Origin: Candidatus Levybacteria bacterium GW2011_GWA1_37_16
Lineage (GTDB): Bacteria; Patescibacteriota; Microgenomatia; Levybacterales; UBA12049
Assembly: GCA_943357985.1 (NCBI GenBank)
Contig: CALRGR010000003.1
Coordinates: 6,496-70,495 of the forward strand
Reading direction: 5' to 3'
DNA: 64,000 nucleotides
Shown: positions 40,499 to 56,970 of the stretch, piece after piece
How positions within the stretch are numbered: position 1 is the stretch's first letter
How the letters are laid out: every line of letters starts with the position of its first letter
The notes under the pieces: model-generated
The model's database searches: none
What the model saw: the letters and a program-made list of their open reading frames with translations, nothing else
Told to the model about the DNA's origin: nothing
Translations under genes and position numbers: made by a program

Positions 40499-41035
40499 AT
40501 GGAAGAGAAATGTCCAAAATGCGGTTCGGCCTTGTCTCCTATTACGGAGACAGCAACAGGCCGCAAGCTTCAAAGGTGCTCTAAGGGCTCTTGGAATCCC
40601 GAAACAAAACAGAATGAAGGCTGTGACTATGTATTATGGATTCAGGCAGAAGATGAAAAGCTAGATGAAAAATGCCCCAAGTGCGGAAATCCACTGGTCA
40701 TGGCGCAAACACGCTTTGGAAAGAAAATGAAAAAGTGTTCAACCAATGTCTGGAATAAAGATACAAAAAAAGCAGAGGGCTGTGACTTTATAGAATGGAT
40801 TAACGGCACAACAAAAGAACTTGATGAAGATTGTCCAGAATGCGGAAAGAAGCTTGTTCTTTATACAACCTCAACAGGAAAAAAGATGAAAAAGTGTTCA
40901 ACCAGTGGCTGGGACAGGGAAAAAAAGGTTACAACGGGCTGCACATATGTCCAATGGCTTAAACCAAGTGAGTATCAATCAAAAGACGAACCAAACGGAG
41001 AAGAGTTTTTACCCCCTGAATCCCAAGCAAACTAG
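40499..41035 (+). CDS. Stand-alone protein built from three tandem topoisomerase-type C4 zinc-ribbon modules
   Basis: Three ~58-aa repeats. Each carries CP(K/E)CG, about 15 intervening residues, then KC and GC (e.g. EKCPKCGNPLVMAQTRFGKKMKKCSTNVWNKDTKKAEGCDFIEW). This resembles the C-terminal zinc ribbons of topoisomerase I and YrdD-type proteins. Confidence 0.55.
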   Translation: MEEKCPKCGSALSPITETATGRKLQRCSKGSWNPETKQNEGCDYVLWIQAEDEKLDEKCPKCGNPLVMAQTRFGKKMKKCSTNVWNKDTKKAEGCDFIEWINGTTKELDEDCPECGKKLVLYTTSTGKKMKKCSTSGWDREKKVTTGCTYVQWLKPSEYQSKDEPNGEEFLPPESQAN

Positions 41036-41730
41036 AAAGGGATGTCTGAAGTTGTTGACTCGATACTTTCAAAGGATTTTCTATAAATGCAAAGCCTGCA
41101 CGTTTCAGACGGTTTTGGCAAATCACCATTTAGAACTTTAGAAATCTCATTAACGAATTTTAAAAATCCATCCATATCTTCCTCTATTGGATGCCATTTA
41201 GGAGATGTAGTAAATACAAATTTTCCGTCTTTATGCTCAATTGCGTCCGGTGAAACGCTAACTAGTCCGATTCTTGAAACTTTAATAGGCTTACCTTCTG
41301 CGGGATTTTCCAAAGCATATTTATAAGCATGCAGTTGACTTGAAAACTTTTTGATTTGCTCTTCATCTGGCTTTGTTATTTTAAAATCTATAACCGAGTA
41401 TGTACCATCTGCAAGTTTAGTTAAAACATCAAAACGTCCACTTATATAACAGTCTTCTGAGCCTTTTATTGGCTGGGATTTTAAAAACCCTTCCTGAATT
41501 TCAATTATTCCCTCTGGCAAATCCGGATGAATATCTTTTAAGCTTTTTCCCATAACAGAATTTTGTAAAAGACTATTCATGTGAGTAAAAATTGCAGGGA
41601 AAGCGCCGGAATGAGGAGGAATACCAAGTTTTACTTTTTGATAGAAACAAAACTTACAATCCTCCCAAAGATACTTGAAGTCGGAAGGGGATAATTTATA
41701 TTGCTTCTGTGCTTGCTCCATGAAAACCAA
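41032..41730 (-). CDS. Cas4/RecB-like PD-(D/E)XK nuclease with flanking Cys pairs
   Basis: Motif II GRFDVL, motif III IDFKITK (D-x-K), and a QLHAYKYAL (Q-x3-Y) motif. Cys pairs lie at the N-terminus (CKFC) and C-terminus (CRLC). No CRISPR array is present. Confidence 0.6.
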   Translation of the reverse strand: MVFMEQAQKQYKLSPSDFKYLWEDCKFCFYQKVKLGIPPHSGAFPAIFTHMNSLLQNSVMGKSLKDIHPDLPEGIIEIQEGFLKSQPIKGSEDCYISGRFDVLTKLADGTYSVIDFKITKPDEEQIKKFSSQLHAYKYALENPAEGKPIKVSRIGLVSVSPDAIEHKDGKFVFTTSPKWHPIEEDMDGFLKFVNEISKVLNGDLPKPSETCRLCIYRKSFESIESTTSDIPF

Positions 41731-41749
41731 TTATACCACTACTCTATCT

Positions 41750-42880
41750 CTAAAGGGGCGGCTCAAGTTCTAGGGTTTTAATTTCCGGGAGTGACTTACC
41801 TATTATTCCCTGCAAATCTCCATACATTCCATGAGTACTGTCTAAAACTTTTCTTATTTCTTTTTCCTGCCTTGCCCATTTGGAATTAAACCATCTTTTT
41901 TCTCTTTCTAATTCGTCCTGCAAATTTCCAAAACCCTCAACAACTGCCTCAACCCTATGCTTAAATTCAGTACCCGTTAAGTATTTATACAGAACCTCCA
42001 TCTTTTCATTCTTTCCCTCTCCATTTGACCTTTCATGATTTAGACTTACCAAGTTATACCGCAAAGAAAGCGCAAGTGGAACTACAAACTTCCATGTAGT
42101 TATCCAAACTCCATCTTTGTAAGTAAAAGAATCTAAGAATTCCGGCTTATTTATTGTGACAAGGATTGCCAAATCTGACTTTTTAGCTCTTTGATCTTCT
42201 TTTAATTTTGCAATCCAGCCATTTTGCCACTGAGCATTTTTAGATTCCCAAAGAATTGTCCCGCAACTTCTTCCCAATTTATCTGTCACTTCATGAACAA
42301 TATCCGCTCCCCTTTCCCCTTTTTTAACTTCAAGAATATTATCCTGTGGAAATTCACTTTTTAGAATTCTTTCGAGTTCTAACTCCATTACTTCTCCTTG
42401 TGTTTGCTGAGAGCCTTGTTCCATTTTGGTTTTAAGCTCTTCAAGTTGTTTTAGGGTATCTGTAAGTTTTTTGTCCTTTTCCAAATCTTTGAATTGATGT
42501 TCATCTTCCGACTGCTTTCTGACTTCTTTTCTAATCTTCTCCTCCTCATCCATTATTTTTTGCTTCATTTCCAATTCCCTCTCTTCATCTTTGCGTCTTA
42601 AGGCTCTCATTTCTTCAAGAAGTTTGTCTAATTTTTCCGTGAGGCTTTTATTTCTATCTTTTTCTTCTGTGTTTTCTTTTTTTAAAGTTTCGAGGGATTG
42701 CTCAAATTCTTTTCCGACTTTCTTTTTAGCGACTTCTTCTGCTGCCAATTTTGTATCTTCGAGTTCTTTTTTGTGCTTTATTTCCAGCGTGAGCAAAACT
42801 TGTTCTTCTATCTGATGAGTTAAAGCTTCCGATACTTCAATTTCTGCCCCACACTTTTTACACTTTATAACATTATTCAT
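41750..42880 (-). CDS. DUF2130/RmuC-like protein: N-terminal CxxC knuckle, long charged coiled coil, C-terminal PD-(D/E)XK-like nuclease domain
   Basis: N-terminal MNNVIKCKKCGAEIEV, then a ~200-aa E/K-rich coiled coil. The C-terminal region carries GERGADIV and ILWESKN (E-x-K) motifs. It is 19 bp upstream of, and co-oriented with, the Cas4-like gene. Confidence 0.5.
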   Translation of the reverse strand: MNNVIKCKKCGAEIEVSEALTHQIEEQVLLTLEIKHKKELEDTKLAAEEVAKKKVGKEFEQSLETLKKENTEEKDRNKSLTEKLDKLLEEMRALRRKDEERELEMKQKIMDEEEKIRKEVRKQSEDEHQFKDLEKDKKLTDTLKQLEELKTKMEQGSQQTQGEVMELELERILKSEFPQDNILEVKKGERGADIVHEVTDKLGRSCGTILWESKNAQWQNGWIAKLKEDQRAKKSDLAILVTINKPEFLDSFTYKDGVWITTWKFVVPLALSLRYNLVSLNHERSNGEGKNEKMEVLYKYLTGTEFKHRVEAVVEGFGNLQDELEREKRWFNSKWARQEKEIRKVLDSTHGMYGDLQGIIGKSLPEIKTLELEPPL

Positions 42881-42896
42881 CTTGAAAGTTAATTAT

Positions 42897-42925
42897 AGCA
42901 CGGGGACTTGGCGGGGTTTTTATTT
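42897..42925 (+). repeat. Direct repeat copy 1 (GCACGGGGACTTGGCGGGGTTTTTATTTT)
   Basis: Near-identical to a copy at 43234-43261. The consensus is GGGGAYTTGGCGRGGTTTTT, preceded in both copies by ATTATA(G/T)CACG. Together they flank a gene remnant. Confidence 0.4.
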
Positions 42926-43023
42926 TAAGAAGCGTTTTGGAAAAGCGTACTATACAAAAGTGCATCTTCTGCAGCTTCTGGTTTATTTTCTTTTCTAATG
43001 TTTTGAATCTTACTAAGCTATTT

Positions 43024-43200
43024 AATTAAATAAGGTTTTAATTCTTTATTGTCTATTTCAGCTCTTCTCTTTAAAGCTTCTAAAAATCTTTCTGTTATAA
43101 CATCAGAGCCTCTATAATAACCCAATGCTACTCGTTTTAAATCAAGAGCGATAGCGCCTAAAACAGCTTTATTTTTATCTGATTTTGTAATTATCCTCTG
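43024..43200 (-). pseudogene. Start-less C-terminal gene remnant (about 59 codons; ...AVLGAIALDLKRVALGYYRGSDVITERFLEALKRRAEIDNKELKPYLIK*)
   Basis: Open frame with no ATG/GTG/TTG start, and an in-frame stop immediately upstream. It lies between the two direct repeats. Confidence 0.25.
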
Positions 43201-43233
43201 ACTTTCAAAATATTATATCACGATATTTATTTC

Positions 43234-43261
43234 CTGGGGATTTGGCGAGGTTTTTGCTTTT
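43234..43261 (+). repeat. Direct repeat copy 2 (CTGGGGATTTGGCGAGGTTTTTGCTTTT)
   Basis: Pairs with the copy at 42897-42925. It lies just upstream of a putative TTGACA-17-TATTAT promoter for the 43306 gene. Confidence 0.4.
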
Positions 43262-43305
43262 ATAAATTTGACAATAAATAAGCAAATGACTATTATAGGT
43301 CACCT

Positions 43306-43755
43306 ATGATACACGAAGCCCCCAAAAGAACATCAGAGCAAATTGCTGCGGGTTTAGTTGCTCAAGCACTAACAGCTCAACAAGAAGGCCTAGAAAAGGA
43401 AATTCCTGTATATCTAAAAGTTTCTATAGACTCACCCTCACTCGCTGCCAGATTTAAAGTCCCTGATATTTCAGGCAATCCTATATTGGGAGACATGCTC
43501 GATAGATTGTTAGTTGTAAATGACGATTTCTCAGTGTCATACGTGACTGGTTTTAATTCTTACGATGGCCATAAATATGAGCACTGGATAACTCCTTCCA
43601 AAAGATATCCAGGATTATTTACTATTACTGAATTCGCGATGAAAGGTAGACAAAGAGTAGCCGAAAGAGTTGGTATTTTAGTCAGCGGGACTAATTTAAT
43701 AGAATTTCAAAATTGGTCACATTTTTTCTACAACGTTATTCAGAAGGAAGCCTAA
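43306..43755 (+). CDS. Hypothetical protein (149 aa, soluble, no recognisable motifs)
   Basis: ORF with a plausible upstream promoter. It is the last gene of the accessory segment before glmS. Confidence 0.4.
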   Translation: MIHEAPKRTSEQIAAGLVAQALTAQQEGLEKEIPVYLKVSIDSPSLAARFKVPDISGNPILGDMLDRLLVVNDDFSVSYVTGFNSYDGHKYEHWITPSKRYPGLFTITEFAMKGRQRVAERVGILVSGTNLIEFQNWSHFFYNVIQKEA

Positions 43756-49982: not shown

Positions 49983-51175
49983 AACTTCTTAAGGGCTTTT
50001 GCTACTGCTTCATATTCATCCCATGGTTCTTCTCCATTGCCTAAATTCATTGATTTTTCATGACTTTTTCCCGTTAGGATAACCAAATCTCCCTTTCTTG
50101 CTATTCTAATAGCCTCATCAATTGCTTTCTGTCTGTCAGAAATTTTAATAAGAGTTTTGTTCTTGATTCTCTTGTCTTTATTTCTAATTCCCTTTTCTAT
50201 ATCATCCGCAATTTTATCTACGCTTTCTCCGCGGGGATCTTCACTTGTCAAAATAATAACATCTGAAAATCTGTCTGAAGCATCCCCCATAAGAGGTCTT
50301 TTTGTACTGTCTCTTTTTCCTGCGCTTCCAAAAACATGAATAATCCTTCCATTAGTCTCTTTTCTTGCCAATTTCAAGAGTTTCTCAAAAGAGTTAGGAG
50401 TGTGCGCAAAATCAATCATAACTCTAAATGGACCTTCAAAAACTATTTCTTGCCTTCCTTTTGGAAGTTTAAAACTCTCAACTGCTTCTTCGATATTTTC
50501 CTTAGAAATTCCCAGAACAGTACAGACAGAAGCTGCTGCCAATATGTTATAATTATTAAATTGTCCGAAAACATTCTTTTCAAAAGAAAAATCCTTTATT
50601 GAAAAATCAGCATCTTTTGAAATCCCATAAGTCAGAAATCTGGAGGAAGCTTTATCTTTTGAAATTATCTTAAAAGAATCATCATCAATGTTTGTTATGG
50701 ATATTTTTGCTTTTTTTAAAAGTTTAAGCTTTGTTGAAACATAATTTTCATAAGTTTTGTGGTAGTCCAAATGCTCATTTGTAACATTTGTTAAAACTGC
50801 GCCTTCAAAATTTATTCCCCATACTCTATGCTGATCTAAAGCATGAGACGTTACTTCCAAAACTACGTATTTTTTGCGCTTCTCTTTAAGATTTGAAATT
50901 CTTTTAAAAAGTTTTTGAATTGTCCACTCGGATGGAGTTGTTACATGAAGACCTATGTCTTCATAAAGCCCTTCAACAGATGCTCCCACCGTTGAAATCA
51001 TTGAGGAATTTAATCCCGCCTTGGTTAGGATGTGATGAATTAGGTTTACAGTAGTTGTTTTACCGTCTGTACCGGTCACTCCAACAACTATCAAATCTTT
51101 GGAAGGGAAACCGTACCAAATATTAGCAACTATTGCGCTAAGCAAATGATAAATATTTTTAATTTCTTGAAGCAT
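49979..51175 (-). CDS. murE: Mur ligase, MurE-like (UDP-MurNAc-L-Ala-D-Glu--diamino acid ligase), lacking the typical N-terminal domain
   Basis: P-loop VGVTGTDGKTTT, motifs HVTTPS and DYHKTYENYVSTK, at about 400 aa. Confidence 0.6.
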   Translation of the reverse strand: MLQEIKNIYHLLSAIVANIWYGFPSKDLIVVGVTGTDGKTTTVNLIHHILTKAGLNSSMISTVGASVEGLYEDIGLHVTTPSEWTIQKLFKRISNLKEKRKKYVVLEVTSHALDQHRVWGINFEGAVLTNVTNEHLDYHKTYENYVSTKLKLLKKAKISITNIDDDSFKIISKDKASSRFLTYGISKDADFSIKDFSFEKNVFGQFNNYNILAAASVCTVLGISKENIEEAVESFKLPKGRQEIVFEGPFRVMIDFAHTPNSFEKLLKLARKETNGRIIHVFGSAGKRDSTKRPLMGDASDRFSDVIILTSEDPRGESVDKIADDIEKGIRNKDKRIKNKTLIKISDRQKAIDEAIRIARKGDLVILTGKSHEKSMNLGNGEEPWDEYEAVAKALKKL

Positions 51176-52497
51176 TATAAAGTTTCCTCTCTTTTTTTGT
51201 CCCAAAATTGCCCACGCCTGCAAAGTTTTGCTTTATCAGCTGAATTTTTCAAAAGCATCTCGGTAACACGCTCTAAGAATAGTGTATTTTGCGAACTCTT
51301 AATAAGAACTACATCTCCTTCTTGTATATTATCAAGGATAAAGTCCCGTCCTTGCGAAAAAGTTTTAAAGCTTAAGTTTTCAAGTCCATTTTTTTTAAGA
51401 ACAGGAGCCACATACTGTTGCATCATTGGACCAACTAAAATTACAAGATCGCAGGTTTTAAGAATTTTATCAGCAACTGTCTTGTGAATTTTCTCCGAAA
51501 TCATACCAAGCTCCCTCATGTCTCCCAAAATTGCTACCTTGCGTCTTTTTCCTGAAACTTTTTTAAGCAAATCTAAAATATCCAGTATTGGCGGTAAAGT
51601 CGCGTTATTATAAGAAGAGTCAATAATCGTTGTGTTTTTTATACCATAAAACACGGAAAGTCTGCCCGGAGGAAGCTTGAAATTTCGTTCAAGCGAGACA
51701 ATTGCATCATTTATAGAAACTCCAAGATATAAAGCAATTGATATTGCGGACATAAATGAACGGGCATAATGATCAGAAAGAGGTCTATCGAGCTTTAACT
51801 TAAAACTTTCTCCAAGATGATTTACATTAAAGCTGAACTTGTTAAGAGTTACTTCAAGATTATCCGCATAAAAGTCTGCGTTCTCTTTTTCAATCGATAT
51901 TGTTGATTTTCTAGCCATAACCGTGGCTGATTCTTTCTCAATTAATTCATCATCAATATTCACAACAGCAAATCCGTCTCCAGGAAGAGATTTTAGAAGA
52001 AGCATTTCCTGCTCCATAGTCTTTTTTAGAATTTCATCTTCCGTTTTTGCTTTATTTTCAAAATAAACGCTATGCTCAAAAGAAATGTTTGTGAGAGTTG
52101 CTATCTGGGGTTTTACAATTTTTAGTAAATAACTCATGTTTTTAGGCTCATCCGGACCGTCAATTCCCATTTCACAAATATAAACGTCATATTGCTTCCA
52201 GTTTATAAAAATACCTAAAAATGAGGTTAGAATAATACGAATCCAGTCTAAAATTGTGTAATTTCCCGGATTTATATCCAAAATATCCAAAGGGATGCCT
52301 GTTTCGCTGTTTTTGCCCTGACCTTGTTTCACTTTATACTTTGAAGTAAGAGTTGCGGCCACAATTGAAGATAAAGAGCTTTTTCCGCTTGCACCTCCAA
52401 TACCCACAACAATAGGTCTTATTTTTATAAGCTGAACTTTTGCAATCATACGCAGATACCAAAGCACAAAAGAGACAACAAACTTTCTCAAAACCAT
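51175..52497 (-). CDS. murF: Mur ligase family protein, MurF-like by position; atypical P-loop GIGGASGKSS
   Basis: Mur-ligase central domain blocks (ICEMGIDGP, TLTNISFEH) and a position after murE in the dcw order. Confidence 0.45.
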   Translation of the reverse strand: MVLRKFVVSFVLWYLRMIAKVQLIKIRPIVVGIGGASGKSSLSSIVAATLTSKYKVKQGQGKNSETGIPLDILDINPGNYTILDWIRIILTSFLGIFINWKQYDVYICEMGIDGPDEPKNMSYLLKIVKPQIATLTNISFEHSVYFENKAKTEDEILKKTMEQEMLLLKSLPGDGFAVVNIDDELIEKESATVMARKSTISIEKENADFYADNLEVTLNKFSFNVNHLGESFKLKLDRPLSDHYARSFMSAISIALYLGVSINDAIVSLERNFKLPPGRLSVFYGIKNTTIIDSSYNNATLPPILDILDLLKKVSGKRRKVAILGDMRELGMISEKIHKTVADKILKTCDLVILVGPMMQQYVAPVLKKNGLENLSFKTFSQGRDFILDNIQEGDVVLIKSSQNTLFLERVTEMLLKNSADKAKLCRRGQFWDKKREETL

Positions 52498-52574
52498 ACT
52501 CGTATTATACCTGTTTAAGCCTCAAAAAGCCAAAATATTGTCAATAAAGTTTACATGGTGTACTCTTAAGTTAG

Positions 52575-53618
52575 ATGAGCCCGCTTGATGAAAATCAACT
52601 TCAGATTGAGATTAAAAAAGAGGGACTGCGCCATATTACGGATGAAATACCCGGCTTTATGAGGCAAAAACTTGGTATAAACTTCACTTATTATGACGAG
52701 GATCTCAAAAGAATAAAAGATAAAGTCGTAATTAGCCGGATTGAGAGCTTAGCAATTCCGCCAGCCTGGAAAAAAGTCTGGATTTGTGCTTCAGAAAACG
52801 GATATCTTCAAGCAACAGGCACTGATGACAAAAGACGTAAACAGTATATTTATCATCCGGAATGGGTAAAAGCAACTCAAACAAGCAAATTTGAAAGACT
52901 GACGGATTTTGGCCTCAGCCTTCCAATAATCCGCTCGAAAATCGATTATGACCTGCACCAAAAAGACATGGATAAGAAAAGAATCCTAGCTACTGTCGTT
53001 TGGTTGCTTGAGAAAACTTTTATCCGCATTGGAAATGAAGAATACGCAAGAAATAATGAAAGCTTCGGGCTAACAACTTTAAGAAACCGTCACGCAAAAG
53101 TAAGAGGAGACCAAATTTCATTTAAATTCATAGGGAAAAGCGGTATTGAGAATGTAATCGAAATATCAAACCCAACAATTGCCAAAACAATCAGAAAATG
53201 TATTGAACTTCCGGGCTACGAGCTTTTTCAATTTATAGATGATAGCGGAGAGCGTCATGTAATTGATTCTGCGGATGTTAACGAATTTTTGAAAGAAATA
53301 ACTAAAAATGAATTTACTACAAAAGATTTTAGAACTTGGGGAGCAACCAATTTATCAGCAAGACACCTTTATAAATTAGGAGGCGCGGAGAGTGAGAAGA
53401 CGATCAAGCAAAATATTATGGACACCATCAAGGAAGTCGCAAGTCAGCTTAACAATACCGTATCGGTTTGTAGAAATTATTACATTCATCCGCAAGTTTT
53501 GAAGAGCTACGTCAAAAAGACTCTAGTTCCCCACTTTGCAGGTTTTGAAAAATCCAGAAAATCAATAAAAGGACTCTCCTGGAACGAAACCGCCCTAATC
53601 AAACTCCTACAAAATTAG
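52575..53618 (+). CDS. Type IB DNA topoisomerase (bacterial/poxvirus-type TopIB)
   Basis: Conserved blocks GLTTLRNRH, KDFRTWGAT and the catalytic Tyr context SVCRNYYIHP. Confidence 0.8.
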   Translation: MSPLDENQLQIEIKKEGLRHITDEIPGFMRQKLGINFTYYDEDLKRIKDKVVISRIESLAIPPAWKKVWICASENGYLQATGTDDKRRKQYIYHPEWVKATQTSKFERLTDFGLSLPIIRSKIDYDLHQKDMDKKRILATVVWLLEKTFIRIGNEEYARNNESFGLTTLRNRHAKVRGDQISFKFIGKSGIENVIEISNPTIAKTIRKCIELPGYELFQFIDDSGERHVIDSADVNEFLKEITKNEFTTKDFRTWGATNLSARHLYKLGGAESEKTIKQNIMDTIKEVASQLNNTVSVCRNYYIHPQVLKSYVKKTLVPHFAGFEKSRKSIKGLSWNETALIKLLQN

Positions 53619-53642
53619 CAATTAGCTCTAAATTCTGCTATA

Positions 53643-54344
53643 ATGGGAACAATGAGAGATTTTAATAGAGGCGGTAACTCGAGACCAAGACGAAGCTATG
53701 ATAATAGAGGATCTTCTGGTGGAAACGAAGAAAGACAAACATTTAAAGCAATATGCGCAGATTGTGGCCGCGACTGTGACCTTCCATTTGAACCCCGTGG
53801 CAACAGACCAGTATATTGCAGAGATTGTTTCAAAAAGCATACACCGGAAGGCTCAAGCGGAGATAGATATGAATCAAGAGGAGATTCCAGAGGGGGTCCA
53901 CGTGAAGATTCAAGGCGATCAGGTGGCGATAGACCAATGTTTAGCGCAGTATGCGACAACTGCGGCAAAACTTGCCAGCTTCCCTTTGAACCAAGACAGG
54001 GAAAAGAAGTTTTCTGCAGTAGATGTTTTGAAGATAAAGAAAAAGGAATAGACATGACGCAAAGAAAAAGCAATAGCAATGGCACGCAAGCACAATCACA
54101 ACCAAACCTTCAAATGGACGCAATAAATGCAAAGCTTGATAAAATATTAAATCTTTTATCCAACACAAAAGCATTAAAAAATGACGAGAAAGCTTCCAAA
54201 GTAGTAGAAGATGAGATAGAACAACTAGTAAAAACAATTAAAGCTGAAAAATCAATCAAACCTAAAAAGAAAGTCAAAGATCCTGAGCAAAGCCGAAGCG
54301 TAGCAGCAGAAACAGAAATTCCAATAGAATCCCCAACGGAATAG
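53643..54344 (+). CDS. RGG/Arg-Gly-rich protein with two repeated CxxC...CxxC zinc-ribbon modules and a lysine-rich C-terminal coiled coil
   Basis: Duplicated module: CADCGRDCDLPFEPRGNRPVYCRDCF and CDNCGKTCQLPFEPRQGKEVFCSRCF. The region is locally GC-rich because of GGN/CGN codons, which produces many spurious overlapping ORFs on both strands. Confidence 0.5.
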   Translation: MGTMRDFNRGGNSRPRRSYDNRGSSGGNEERQTFKAICADCGRDCDLPFEPRGNRPVYCRDCFKKHTPEGSSGDRYESRGDSRGGPREDSRRSGGDRPMFSAVCDNCGKTCQLPFEPRQGKEVFCSRCFEDKEKGIDMTQRKSNSNGTQAQSQPNLQMDAINAKLDKILNLLSNTKALKNDEKASKVVEDEIEQLVKTIKAEKSIKPKKKVKDPEQSRSVAAETEIPIESPTE

Positions 54345-54475
54345 TTATCCTTTTTTATTCTTTTTTAATTTTCCCTGAAGATCATTAAAAAGTTCTTGAG
54401 AAATTTCCCTGGGCGTTAATTTCTTATCTCTAAGGTTTTTAGGGCTGAGAAGTCTTGAAGGTTTTTTCATCGAGA

Positions 54476-54592
54476 TTTAAAAAGGAATATCGGAAGTAGA
54501 ATTTGGGTCCACCTCAAAGGTTTTTCTGTATATGCAAAGCCTGCAATCTTCATAAAGATAAGCAAAGTCGGAAGGTGATAGCTTGTACATAT
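54476..54592 (-). pseudogene. Internally deleted remnant of a paralogue of the Cas4-like nuclease (N-terminal 15 aa fused to C-terminal 22 aa)
   Basis: Translates to MYKLSPSDFAYLYEDCRLCIYRKTFEVDPNSTSDIPF*. Compare the intact gene at 41032-41730: ...QYKLSPSDFKYLWEDCKFC... and ...ETCRLCIYRKSFESIESTTSDIPF*. The DNA is also similar (tgcaggctttgcat...). Confidence 0.6.
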
Positions 54593-54596
54593 TTAT

Positions 54597-54674
54597 GTAT
54601 TACGCCTTTCGACTAGTCCTGAGCGAAGCCGAATGACAAAATCAGAAGGAGATAATTTATACTGTTGCGCCATA
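54597..54674 (-). pseudogene. Second N-terminal fragment of the same nuclease family (MAQQYKLSPSDFVIRLRSGLVERRNT*)
   Basis: Translated by hand from the minus strand. It shares the QYKLSPSDF block with both the intact gene and the adjacent remnant. Confidence 0.45.
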
Positions 54675-54721
54675 AGAGAATAATTATACCACGAAGGAGG
54701 AATTCTGACTAAGAAGTCAAA

Positions 54722-54907
54722 TTATTTCTTGCTAGAATTTTCCACAACTCCAATCTCTCCTAGCGTGAGGTTGTAGAGTTTATAAACCATTTTATCAAGC
54801 TCTGCCTTTAGATCATCATAAACCTCGGGAAGCTTTTTCATTAACTCTAAAGAATCACCTAGATAGAGAGCGAAGTTTTTATCATCATTGAGGAAATAGG
54901 TCTTCAT
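54722..54907 (-). pseudogene. Probable in-frame deletion remnant of an amino-DNA methyltransferase / RM-associated gene (61 aa)
   Basis: N-terminal NFALYLGDSLELMKKLPE resembles the N-terminus of beta-class N6/N4 MTases that normally precedes the S/DPPY motif. It is immediately followed by LDKMVYKLYNLTLGEIGVVE, which resembles the C-terminal ends of RM enzymes. The catalytic core is absent. Confidence 0.4.
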
Positions 54908-54975
54908 TTGTATTAAAATTATACTTCTTTTCCTTACAATTTACTATTCCACTAATATTGACACCTTTTGATCTA

Positions 54976-55005
54976 TTGACAAGAGTGTGTATTGAGTTAT
55001 ATAAT
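54976..55005 (+). promoter_or_regulatory. Consensus sigma70-type promoter (TTGACA-18-TATAAT)
   Basis: TTGACA at 54976-54981, TATAAT at 55000-55005, with a second TTGACA at 54958-54963. Confidence 0.5.
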
Positions 55006-55011
55006 GCTTTT

Positions 55012-55091
55012 TACCTCTAATACGCAAGTGTTAGGGATAGAAAATCTAGCAATAGATTTTCGGCAAAGGGACCCCGCAAGGGGTTTTTTTG
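55012..55091 (+). ncRNA. Candidate small RNA (~80 nt) of unknown family with two GCAA-tetraloop hairpins
   Basis: Lies downstream of the consensus promoter. Internal 9-bp hairpin GAAAATCTA-GCAA-TAGATTTTC. It ends in an intrinsic terminator. There is no plausible CDS; the listed 78-aa ORF 54992-55228 runs across the terminator. Confidence 0.35.
55069..55091 (+). terminator. Rho-independent terminator (GGACCCC-GCAA-GGGGT followed by T7)
   Basis: GC stem with a GNRA loop and a run of seven T's. It may also serve the convergent ftsI gene weakly from the other strand. Confidence 0.55.
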
Positions 55092-55287
55092 TGCCTACTT
55101 TTCTGTCCTTTCGTTCCGGCGAAAGAACGAAAGCCTCTCTTGCCAGTGAAGCCGGACTATTTTTACTCCGCTCGCTGATCGGGTTATTTCACCCCCTCCA
55201 TCGACAGGTTTGCGAGGAATCCCCCTGATAGCTCGCTACATAAAAAAATTAACGTCCTAATGCTTCAAGGCAAGAATAAGAAGAATA

Positions 55288-56970
55288 TTATTCCGTGGGG
55301 GGAATTCCGTAATACGTCAATATGTCTTTGGCGATGGAGAAAAAGACCGGGGCGGCAGTGTCTGCACCGTATATGCTAGTCGTGGGCCTATCAATAATTA
55401 CAAGCATGACGAACTTTGGATTGTCCGCGGGAGCAAAACCAATAAAAGAAGCGATTGTTTGGTTTGGGTCATAATGTCCCGCAACCGGAATTGACGCTGT
55501 TCCTGTTTTACCTGCAATTCTATAACCTTTTAGCCTTGCCCACTGCGCCTCTCCCTTATTTACGGCATTTACCATAATCTCCGTCATTATTTTTGAAGTT
55601 TTTTCCGAAATTGTTCTTGTGACTACTTTTGACGGAATTTTTACTTTGTCCCCTTCTGCTGTATGAATTTGCGCCACAATGTGCGGTTCCATCCTAAGCC
55701 CTCCATTTGCAATTGAACCTATAGCGGCAAGAAGCTGTATGGGAGTAATTGAGATTCCCTGACCAAAACTTACCGTTGCCAAATCTACTTCATACCAATT
55801 ATCTTTTTCCTTAATTGGCTGTGCCACTTCTCCCTGCAAATCAATCCCCGTTGTTTGCCCTATGCCAAATTTTTCTAAATGCGATAGCATGCGATTTAGT
55901 CCGAGTTTCTTCCCAACAAAAACCATTCCTGTATTATCCGAATGAATTATTGTATCAATCATACTAATATTGGGCTTATACTTATCATTCCAGGTTTTGA
56001 TGGTATATCCGCCTATTGAAACAGGTTTATCACAGATATTACATTTAGTCTCTGGCGTTACCAAACCTTCATCCAAGGCAGCTGACATAATAAGAGGCTT
56101 AAAAGTAGAACCCGGTTCATAAGCATCATTAATGAATGGATTTCTATACTCTTTTTCGGAATAGTCCTGGAACTTTTGCGGATCAAAAGATGGAGTTGCT
56201 ACCATTGCAAGAATTTGCCCTGTTGCTGGATCCATAACTGCAACCATTCCCCCGCTTGCGCCGTAAGTATCAATTGCTTTTTTCAACTTGTTCTCTGCCG
56301 CATACTGAATAGCTCTGTCTATTGATAAGACAAGACTATCTCCATCAATTGTTTTTTCATCCCCGCTATTTAGTTTTGCAACTATTGGTCTTCCTAATGC
56401 ATCCTGAATAACGCTTGCAAGCCCTTCCTTGCCTCTCAAAAGCCTGTCGTAATGCCCTTCAAGCCCAAAATAACCAGTATCTACATCCGCATCATTCTTA
56501 CCCACAAAACCCAAAAGATGGGCCGCAGTTGATGCTTCCGAATAAAGCCTTGTGTAGTTTTCTTCAAACCCAATACCGGGGAGTTTTAATTGCTCAATTT
56601 GCTGTTTTGTTGCAAGGCCTACCTTTGGTGGAAGTGCCACCCAAAATTTATCCAGATTTAAAAGCGCGGATACAGAAGCCTCCTCAGTTTTTAGAATCGG
56701 AGCCAAAACCAAAGCTGTTAATTTTTTATCCTTAACCACTTTTGGGTTTGCAAAAACAGTATAGATAAGTCTATTGGCAACTATAGGAAATCCGTCTGAT
56801 GTATAGATTTGGCCACGCGCCGGCTGAAGTTTTATTATTCTTCCGTATTGATTTTCCCCAAGAAGAGAAAGCTCCGATGCTTTAACAACCTGCCAGTAAA
56901 AAAGACGGGAAATAACGACAAAGAAAAGAAAAATTAGAAAACAAAAGGTAAACCTGTAACGCCAGGTCAT
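55288..56970 (-). CDS. ftsI: Penicillin-binding protein 2 / FtsI (class B transpeptidase)
   Basis: N-terminal TM helix, a PBP dimerisation domain, and the SxxK (STFK), SxN (SDN) and KTG (KTGT) motifs. Confidence 0.9.
   Translation of the reverse strand: MTWRYRFTFCFLIFLFFVVISRLFYWQVVKASELSLLGENQYGRIIKLQPARGQIYTSDGFPIVANRLIYTVFANPKVVKDKKLTALVLAPILKTEEASVSALLNLDKFWVALPPKVGLATKQQIEQLKLPGIGFEENYTRLYSEASTAAHLLGFVGKNDADVDTGYFGLEGHYDRLLRGKEGLASVIQDALGRPIVAKLNSGDEKTIDGDSLVLSIDRAIQYAAENKLKKAIDTYGASGGMVAVMDPATGQILAMVATPSFDPQKFQDYSEKEYRNPFINDAYEPGSTFKPLIMSAALDEGLVTPETKCNICDKPVSIGGYTIKTWNDKYKPNISMIDTIIHSDNTGMVFVGKKLGLNRMLSHLEKFGIGQTTGIDLQGEVAQPIKEKDNWYEVDLATVSFGQGISITPIQLLAAIGSIANGGLRMEPHIVAQIHTAEGDKVKIPSKVVTRTISEKTSKIMTEIMVNAVNKGEAQWARLKGYRIAGKTGTASIPVAGHYDPNQTIASFIGFAPADNPKFVMLVIIDRPTTSIYGADTAAPVFFSIAKDILTYYGIPPTE

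Follow-up and report, generated by a model that had tools for sequence, protein, structure and literature searches.

Introduction

Pseudogenes are reported to account for about 5–10% of the genes in some CPR genomes (PMC11188291), and Cas4 genes of the solo type to be over-represented or common in CPR genomes (PMC5704561). Here we analysed a 64-kb stretch of DNA from a Levybacteria contig (hereafter the window, to whose numbering all coordinates refer unless a relative is named), in which two short open reading frames, orf37 and orf26, resemble parts of a Cas4-like PD-(D/E)XK nuclease gene. In all likelihood these reading frames are non-functional remnants of two distinct full-length nuclease genes, left behind in a hypervariable island between ftsI and murE that has since collapsed. 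The homology of the fragments, their synteny with full-length genes in relatives, the presence of two separate gene heads and the anatomy of the deletion junction are documented below; the deletion mechanism, the lack of function and the reason for the loss are what we infer from them.

Results

The intact nuclease and its family

The window carries one intact gene for a PD-(D/E)XK nuclease of the Cas4/AddB fold on the minus strand (41032..41721, 229 aa; Pfam PDDEXK_1, E 4.5e-9; invariant CxxC...CxxC). The preliminary description had placed a nuclease of 232 aa at 41032-41730; the nuclease is genuine, while the gene almost certainly starts at the ATG at 41721 and is thus most likely 229 aa long. 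The product read from this ATG is identical to a protein already in the databases (P0001), and the TTG at 41730 falls inside the -10 promoter box. The catalytic residues D98, D112-F-K114 and Q129...Y133 are invariant in 20 homologues, and so are C22, C25, C208 and C211, which are arranged 2+2 with one CxxC at each end of the protein; in Cas4 and AddB the cysteines usually follow a 1+3 pattern. By analogy, the cysteines from both ends of the domain would be expected to bind one metal cluster, which would explain why the termini are the most conserved parts of the protein and resemble each other.

The family is widespread in Microgenomates, with 584 matches at E<=1e-3, and a pseudo-repeat marks both termini of its members, each CxxC pair being followed by [FIY]-Y-[QR]-K. 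Against the NCBIfam cas4 model (TIGR00372) the intact protein scores 28.5 bits for a cutoff of 65, and no match at E<=1 was obtained among PDB sequences. Its AlphaFold model (pLDDT 82) matches AdnAB, EXO5, Cas4 SSO0001, type I-C Cas4, MGME1 and AddAB with E-values from 6e-6 to 3e-3 and TM values of 0.4-0.55, the best structural matches being 9np6 (E 6e-6) and 7lw7 (E 1e-5). The neighbours of the gene are those for a DUF2130 protein, a Zn-ribbon protein, mraY and glmS, with no cas gene among them. The parent family is Cas4-like no more than loosely, at the level of the fold, and at most a solo-type relative.

Identity and extent of the fragments

Both fragments lie on the minus strand, orf37 at 54477..54590 (product MYKLSPSDFAYLYEDCRLCIYRKTFEVDPNSTSDIPF, followed by a stop codon) and orf26 at 54593..54673 (product MAQQYKLSPSDFVIRLRSGLVERRNT, likewise followed by a stop codon). 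orf37 is an in-frame fusion remnant of one nuclease copy, referred to as copy B, in which the N-terminal ~15 codons with the native start (MYKLSPSDF) are joined to the C-terminal ~22 codons and the native stop. orf26 holds a second copy of the N-terminal block: its codons 1-12 (MAQQYKLSPSDF; 54638..54673, minus strand) are by homology the head of a copy A, and the remainder of the frame (54593-54637) has no recognisable homology.

When the intact protein was compared with the whole 64-kb window by tblastn, its residues 11-32 matched 54587..54522 (73% identity, E 3e-8) and its residues 209-232 matched 54551..54480 (71% identity, E 2e-6). The orf26 block at 54667..54638 is identical to residues 9-18 at 9 of 10 positions, with the tblastn E-value of 3e-8 that it has in common with the N-terminal block of orf37. 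Besides the intact gene and the fragment site, the best tblastn match of the intact nuclease in the window reached an E-value of 0.19. At the DNA level, blastn returned three matches between the intact gene and the fragments (71-73% identity; E 4e-7, 2e-5 and 3e-3), one of which runs upstream past the ATG of orf26 into the common GTGGTATAAT box. An independent repeat finder gave the N-terminal block as its top family (three copies, D1) and the C-terminal block as its second (39 nt, 85%, D2). The E-values, and the fact that these matches are unique in the window, rule out chance or low-complexity similarity. In agreement with these results, the preliminary description had transcribed both reading frames correctly, had recognised orf37 as the two ends of the nuclease without its catalytic core and orf26 as a repeat of the N-terminal block, and had noted that the DNA of the fragments is similar and not identical to that of the intact gene.

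Residues ~23-207 are absent from orf37, including D98, D112-x-K114, Q129-xxx-Y133 and two of the four cysteines, and by alignment the catalytic core is missing from orf26 as well. orf37 matches no Pfam or NCBIfam model, and a database look-up found no record of its exact product as a called gene. The surviving blocks show no decay: all the family-invariant positions that they cover are kept (11/11 in orf37 and 5/5 in orf26). With regard to its parentage, orf37 is identical to the nuclease of one relative (L062, see below) at 30 of 37 residues, with DFAYL and FEVD in common, and to the intact copy at 29 of 37, all at ~70% identity in the DNA; this near-equal closeness would favour neither as the parent lineage.

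The source of the window is a metagenome-assembled genome that homologues and flanking genes assign to Candidatus Levybacteria (Microgenomates, CPR), and strain-variable islands are prone to mis-assembly, so the fragments might be an artefact of assembly or binning, with reads of different nuclease alleles joined into one chimeric contig. We consider this exceedingly improbable. Separately built assemblies agree on the arrangement: it is identical in the NCBI record and in a 71-kb Logan contig (L080, with 100% identity over this region), and the same gene order is found in an ENA contig. The fragments are moreover ~70% identical to any known copy and are not pieces of the intact one, and an in-frame junction at a repeat is what would be expected of a biological deletion.

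A variable island between ftsI and murE

The dcw cluster of the window has the order mraZ-rsmH-ftsL-ftsI, a 2.8-kb insert, murE, more mur genes, murA, glmU, glmS, a second insert, mraY and ftsW. The first insert (52498..55287) is the collapsed variable island, bounded by murE (51175-52497, minus strand) and ftsI (55288-56970, minus strand). It holds a conserved noncoding, small-RNA-like element, orf61, orf26, orf37 and orf41, together with two genes on the plus strand, for a zf_Tbcl_2 protein (53643-54344) and for a topoisomerase IB (TopoIB, 52575-53618).

In order to place this arrangement among relatives, we compared 79 ftsI-anchored loci from GTDB genomes. Since ftsI adjoins murE, with a gap of 3-103 nt, in 28 of the 72 evaluable loci, the insert is a lineage-specific island. 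In three variants of the island a full-length nuclease gene is present, on the same strand as ftsI in each. The loci L084-L086 (ftsI 80% and TopoIB 84% identical to those of the window) read ftsI, Mrr endonuclease, a 284-aa ORF, nuclease, HTH, TopoIB on the minus strand and murE, and their nuclease (223 aa, start MYKLSPSDF) is 86% identical to the intact copy of the window. In L062 (ftsI 82%), ftsI is followed by the noncoding element, an 880-aa type IIG/PglX-like methyltransferase, more genes including one for a Dam-like methylase, a zf protein (minus strand), the nuclease (226 aa, 66% identical to the intact copy) and TopoIB (minus strand). In L172 (TopoIB 78%), the region from ftsI to murE includes an orf41-like ORF, a DUF2130 gene (70%), the nuclease (70%), a Zn-ribbon gene (minus strand, 78%) and TopoIB (minus strand), in that order. 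The preliminary description had pointed to a full-length homologue at this position in the lineage as a thing to look for, and these loci provide it. L002 (ftsI 74%) has ftsI, a 309-aa ORF, a CcrM-like methyltransferase (274 aa), a 174-aa ORF, YbjQ, an orf41-like ORF and a zf protein (minus strand); in L001 and L169-L171 the cargo is different and no nuclease lies within reach. Because relatives hold full-length nuclease genes in the same ftsI/murE island, orf26 and orf37 are, on the evidence of these comparisons, deletion remnants of such genes.

The island can be described as a hypervariable part of the dcw cluster that is anchored by TopoIB, with different cargo in every lineage examined (L001, L002, L062, L084 and L170-L172). 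Mrr, type II restriction-modification, type IIG/PglX-like and Dam-like methylase genes are found in it, as are LGFP, TspO, rhodanese and phosphoribosyltransferase (Pribosyltran-domain) genes. The closest relatives reach 82% identity for ftsI among GTDB genomes and 84% for TopoIB among JGI metagenomes; in a set of 5.8 billion proteins no TopoIB relative lies between 86% and 100% identity, and none of these three collections yielded a sister strain.

Neighbours of the fragments

Upstream of orf26 lies orf61 (54722..54907, minus strand), which public assemblies call as a gene. BLASTP aligned its residues 1-33 with the N-terminus of the CcrM-like type II methyltransferase of L002 at 67% identity (E 1e-13), the DNA upstream being likewise homologous, and its residues 23-58 with the C-terminal 36 residues of the 880-aa type IIG/PglX-like enzyme of L062 at 39% identity (E 2e-5); the identities of the two full-length enzymes were assigned with NCBIfam. 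As read from these alignments, orf61 is a chimeric stub of two genes that are intact in relatives. Within ~430 bp (54477-54907) there are thus four stubs of genes that relatives keep intact, and the whole 0.6 kb is a gene graveyard.

On the other side, orf41 (54345..54470, minus strand) starts 6 nt past the stop of orf37. It has a conserved RDKKLTPREI core and homologues in L002 (14477-14596) and L172 (17111-17245); ORFs of this type, lysine-rich and of ~40 aa, thus occur in three island variants including that of the window. Its recurrence in these alignments suggests that orf41 is probably a genuine, unannotated small protein gene and not a remnant.

The noncoding element of the island, just downstream of ftsI on the opposite strand, is a candidate small RNA (54976-55100, core 55001-55092, plus strand). 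It includes a perfect TTGACA-18-TATAAT promoter (54976-55005), and the predicted transcript of ~90 nt would form three hairpins, the last of which is an intrinsic terminator (55063-55092 and a U-run), with an MFE of -38.7 kcal/mol and a z of -5.5. In L062 and L084 the core is conserved at 89-91% identity, as against only ~80% for the ftsI proteins of these relatives. In hairpin 2 of the L084 version, one A-U pair is replaced by U-A in a compensatory manner, and two further changes are compatible with G-U pairing. Rfam returned no match for the candidate, which among the ftsI loci is confined to the window, L062 and L084.

Two gene heads with their own 5' flanks

The two N-terminal blocks are preceded by different sequences. 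The head of orf37 (window 54613-54523) aligns to L084 6312-6402, beginning 22 nt upstream of the ATG of the L084 nuclease, so that orf37 retains 22-23 nt of native 5' sequence; this flank of copy B (54591..54613, minus strand) contains a decayed -10 box, GGCGTAAT. The head of orf26 with its upstream sequence (window 54701-54638) aligns instead to the 5' ends of the genes of L081 (80%), L087 (75%) and L062 (72%) and of the intact copy (71%). Here the promoter of copy A is retained (TAGTCA-17-TATAAT with a TG extension; 54683..54711, minus strand): its layout is common with that of the intact copy, L062, L081 and L087, its -10 box ends 9 nt upstream of the ATG of orf26, and it still scores well. 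Concomitantly, the two heads are of different N-terminal types, the short one in orf37 (MYKL, as in L084) and the long one in orf26 (MAQQYKL, as in the intact copy and L062).

Within the YKLSPSDF block, orf26 and orf37 differ at 6 of 24 bases and all six differences are synonymous, an outcome that six random substitutions give with a frequency of ~2e-5 (300,000 simulated sets). Over the same block 4-5 synonymous changes separate each head from the intact copy, which is about the level seen between orthologues of different species. As all differences between the heads are synonymous, the heads diverged while each sat in a gene under selection, which argues against a fragment that was duplicated after decay.

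The latter scenario deserves consideration since the two blocks code for one and the same peptide and lie side by side, 74 nt from each other: a single old paralogue could have decayed in place, its N-terminal fragment being tandem-duplicated by repeated internal rearrangements after inactivation. Six base differences with zero amino-acid change (P ~2e-5), distinct native 5' flanks and N-terminal types (MAQQYKL versus MYKL), and the match of each flank to the 5' ends of different full-length genes make this very unlikely. The preliminary description had favoured one older paralogue with repeated internal deletions; that the fragments are deletion derivatives holds, and the single parent gives way to two. 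Altogether, the sequences of the flanks and blocks show orf26 and orf37 to be the heads of two different gene copies, which would be tandem paralogues of ancient origin or else alleles acquired one after the other.

The extended -10 box GTGGTATAAT is found only 8-9 nt upstream of the ATG in genes of this nuclease family (window 41719-41735 and 54671-54692, both minus strand; L062, L081 and L087). Such a short distance suggests that the mRNAs of the family may be leaderless or near-leaderless.

The deletion junction in orf37

The junction of orf37 falls at the first Cys codon of the CxxC motif, at ~54545: the product reads YLYED up to the junction and CRLCIYRK after it, being of the N-terminal type through the Asp and of the C-terminal type from the Cys on. 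In five full-length genes the segments coding for the N- and C-terminal CxxC are codon-aligned, identical at 16-22 of 39 nt and 185-186 codons apart, and over the Cys codon they have an exact microhomology of 2-5 nt (from TG to TTGCA). Microhomology at the junction, which the preliminary description had raised, is therefore present. A single event of slippage or illegitimate recombination between the CxxC-[FIY]-Y-[QR]-K repeats, presumably the mechanism at work here, would have removed ~186 codons (~558 bp) from copy B. As both repeats are read in one frame, such a deletion automatically yields a 37-codon ORF with native start and stop, and since the frame is kept automatically, the open frame of orf37 needs no selective explanation.

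This bears on the question of whether the small reading frames have a role of their own. orf37 could encode a microprotein, made of both halves of the metal-cluster "staple", that modulates or poisons the intact nuclease, or the remnant promoter and leader could have been co-opted for orf41. An intact promoter does lie 9 nt upstream of the ATG of orf26, in orf37 the native start and stop are preserved together with all the invariant residues in its range, and orf41, which is conserved in L002 and L172, begins 6 nt past the stop of orf37. We nevertheless regard a function of this kind as highly improbable. Beyond the open frame being the automatic outcome of a deletion between in-frame repeats, orf37 with its one CxxC has half of the ligand set and no catalytic residue, the -10 box at its head is decayed, and orf26 enters unrelated sequence past codon 12. 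A degenerate DNA pattern specific for the fusion junction gave 0 matches in JGI metagenomes, a search run with no positive control and on a collection from which the source genome is possibly missing; this result speaks against a fusion that is recurrent or conserved. The more specific proposition, that orf37 is translated into a 37-residue microprotein titrating the intact paralogue or its partners in a dominant-negative manner, or that the remnant promoter and leader were exapted for orf41, has in our judgement a very small probability. The undecayed blocks and the intact-looking promoter of copy A fit a recent deletion and would equally fit selection on the mini-ORFs.

A relocated block with the intact copy

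The second insert of the window, from glmS to mraY, comprises a 149-aa ORF and the genes for the DUF2130 protein (41750-42880, minus strand), the intact nuclease and the Zn-ribbon protein (40499-41035, plus strand), the last three forming a block at 40499..42880. In L172 the Zn-ribbon, nuclease and DUF2130 genes lie in the ftsI|murE island beside TopoIB (window 40499-43755 versus L172 11053-15648). The gap between glmS and mraY measures 41-59 nt in L172, L009 and L070 (43 nt in L172), as against 3.4 kb inserted in the window. The nuclease block of the window thus appears to have moved out of the ftsI|murE island, a relocation within the dcw cluster. Apart from the nuclease blocks themselves, a repeat finder returned nothing above chance level that would connect the remnant site with the edges of the relocated block, and no repeats mark these edges.

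The identity of 86% between the intact copy and the island gene of L084 is close to the genome-wide divergence (ftsI 80%, TopoIB 84%), whereas the island nuclease of L062 is far more divergent from the intact copy (66%, versus 82% for ftsI). From this difference, two nuclease lineages seem to circulate in this Levybacteria clade.

Discussion

The history that best accounts for the locus begins with two full-length nuclease genes in the hypervariable island between ftsI and murE. Copy B, now orf37, would have lost its whole catalytic core in one microhomology-mediated deletion, and copy A, now orf26, would have been truncated past codon 12 with its promoter kept. The same collapse would also have taken the neighbouring restriction-modification genes, of which the chimeric orf61 is left. 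With a third, intact copy 13 kb away, the loss of the other two was probably tolerated; likely, the island copies went with the restriction-modification cargo because they were redundant given the intact copy elsewhere. As possible causes, the preliminary description had offered recombination among the copies of the nuclease or counter-selection of a toxic gene, and redundancy with a relocated intact copy is a simpler one.

For annotation, it follows that orf26, orf37 and orf61 resemble small genes and should be flagged as pseudogene remnants. The locus is an unusually well documented case of gene decay, a snapshot of a streamlined CPR genome shedding redundant and defence genes. It displays short-homology deletions that chance to keep reading frames, a variable island wedged into an otherwise conserved dcw cluster, and the apparent relocation of the nuclease, Zn-ribbon and DUF2130 genes.

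Compared with known systems, the remnants share with pseudogenes arising from deletional bias an intact homologue, the loss of the core, full-length syntenic versions in relatives, short microhomology and a variable, defence-rich setting. They depart from such pseudogenes in that orf37 and orf61 are tidy in-frame fusions of an N- and a C-terminus that look like small genes to an ORF caller; in orf37 this tidiness is due to the codon-aligned internal repeat. The setting is also reminiscent of the turnover of restriction-modification and defence islands: in relatives the site holds Mrr, a CcrM-like methyltransferase with a putative endonuclease, a type IIG/PglX-like enzyme and a Dam-like methylase, and the window retains only stubs of such genes. 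Unlike in such islands, the turnover here takes place inside the dcw cluster, between ftsI and murE, at a TopoIB-anchored site.

The parent nuclease resembles Cas4 and solo-Cas4 in its PD-(D/E)XK and QxxxY motifs, its four invariant cysteines and the predicted fold match to 4ic1 (Cas4 SSO0001) and 8d3l (type I-C Cas4), and, as in the solo type, its neighbours include no cas genes. It differs from Cas4 by its score of 28.5 bits against the cutoff of 65 and by its 2+2 cysteines, and the fragments differ further in that orf26 and orf37 have no catalytic residue at all. The best structural matches of the modelled parent nuclease would place it near the RecB-type domains with an Fe-S "iron staple" (AddB, AdnA/AdnB and EXO5); unlike these, it is a stand-alone protein of 229 aa with no helicase partner nearby. 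Taken together, the fragments are ordinary pseudogene remnants of a solo-Cas4-like family, and they represent no new mechanism or system.
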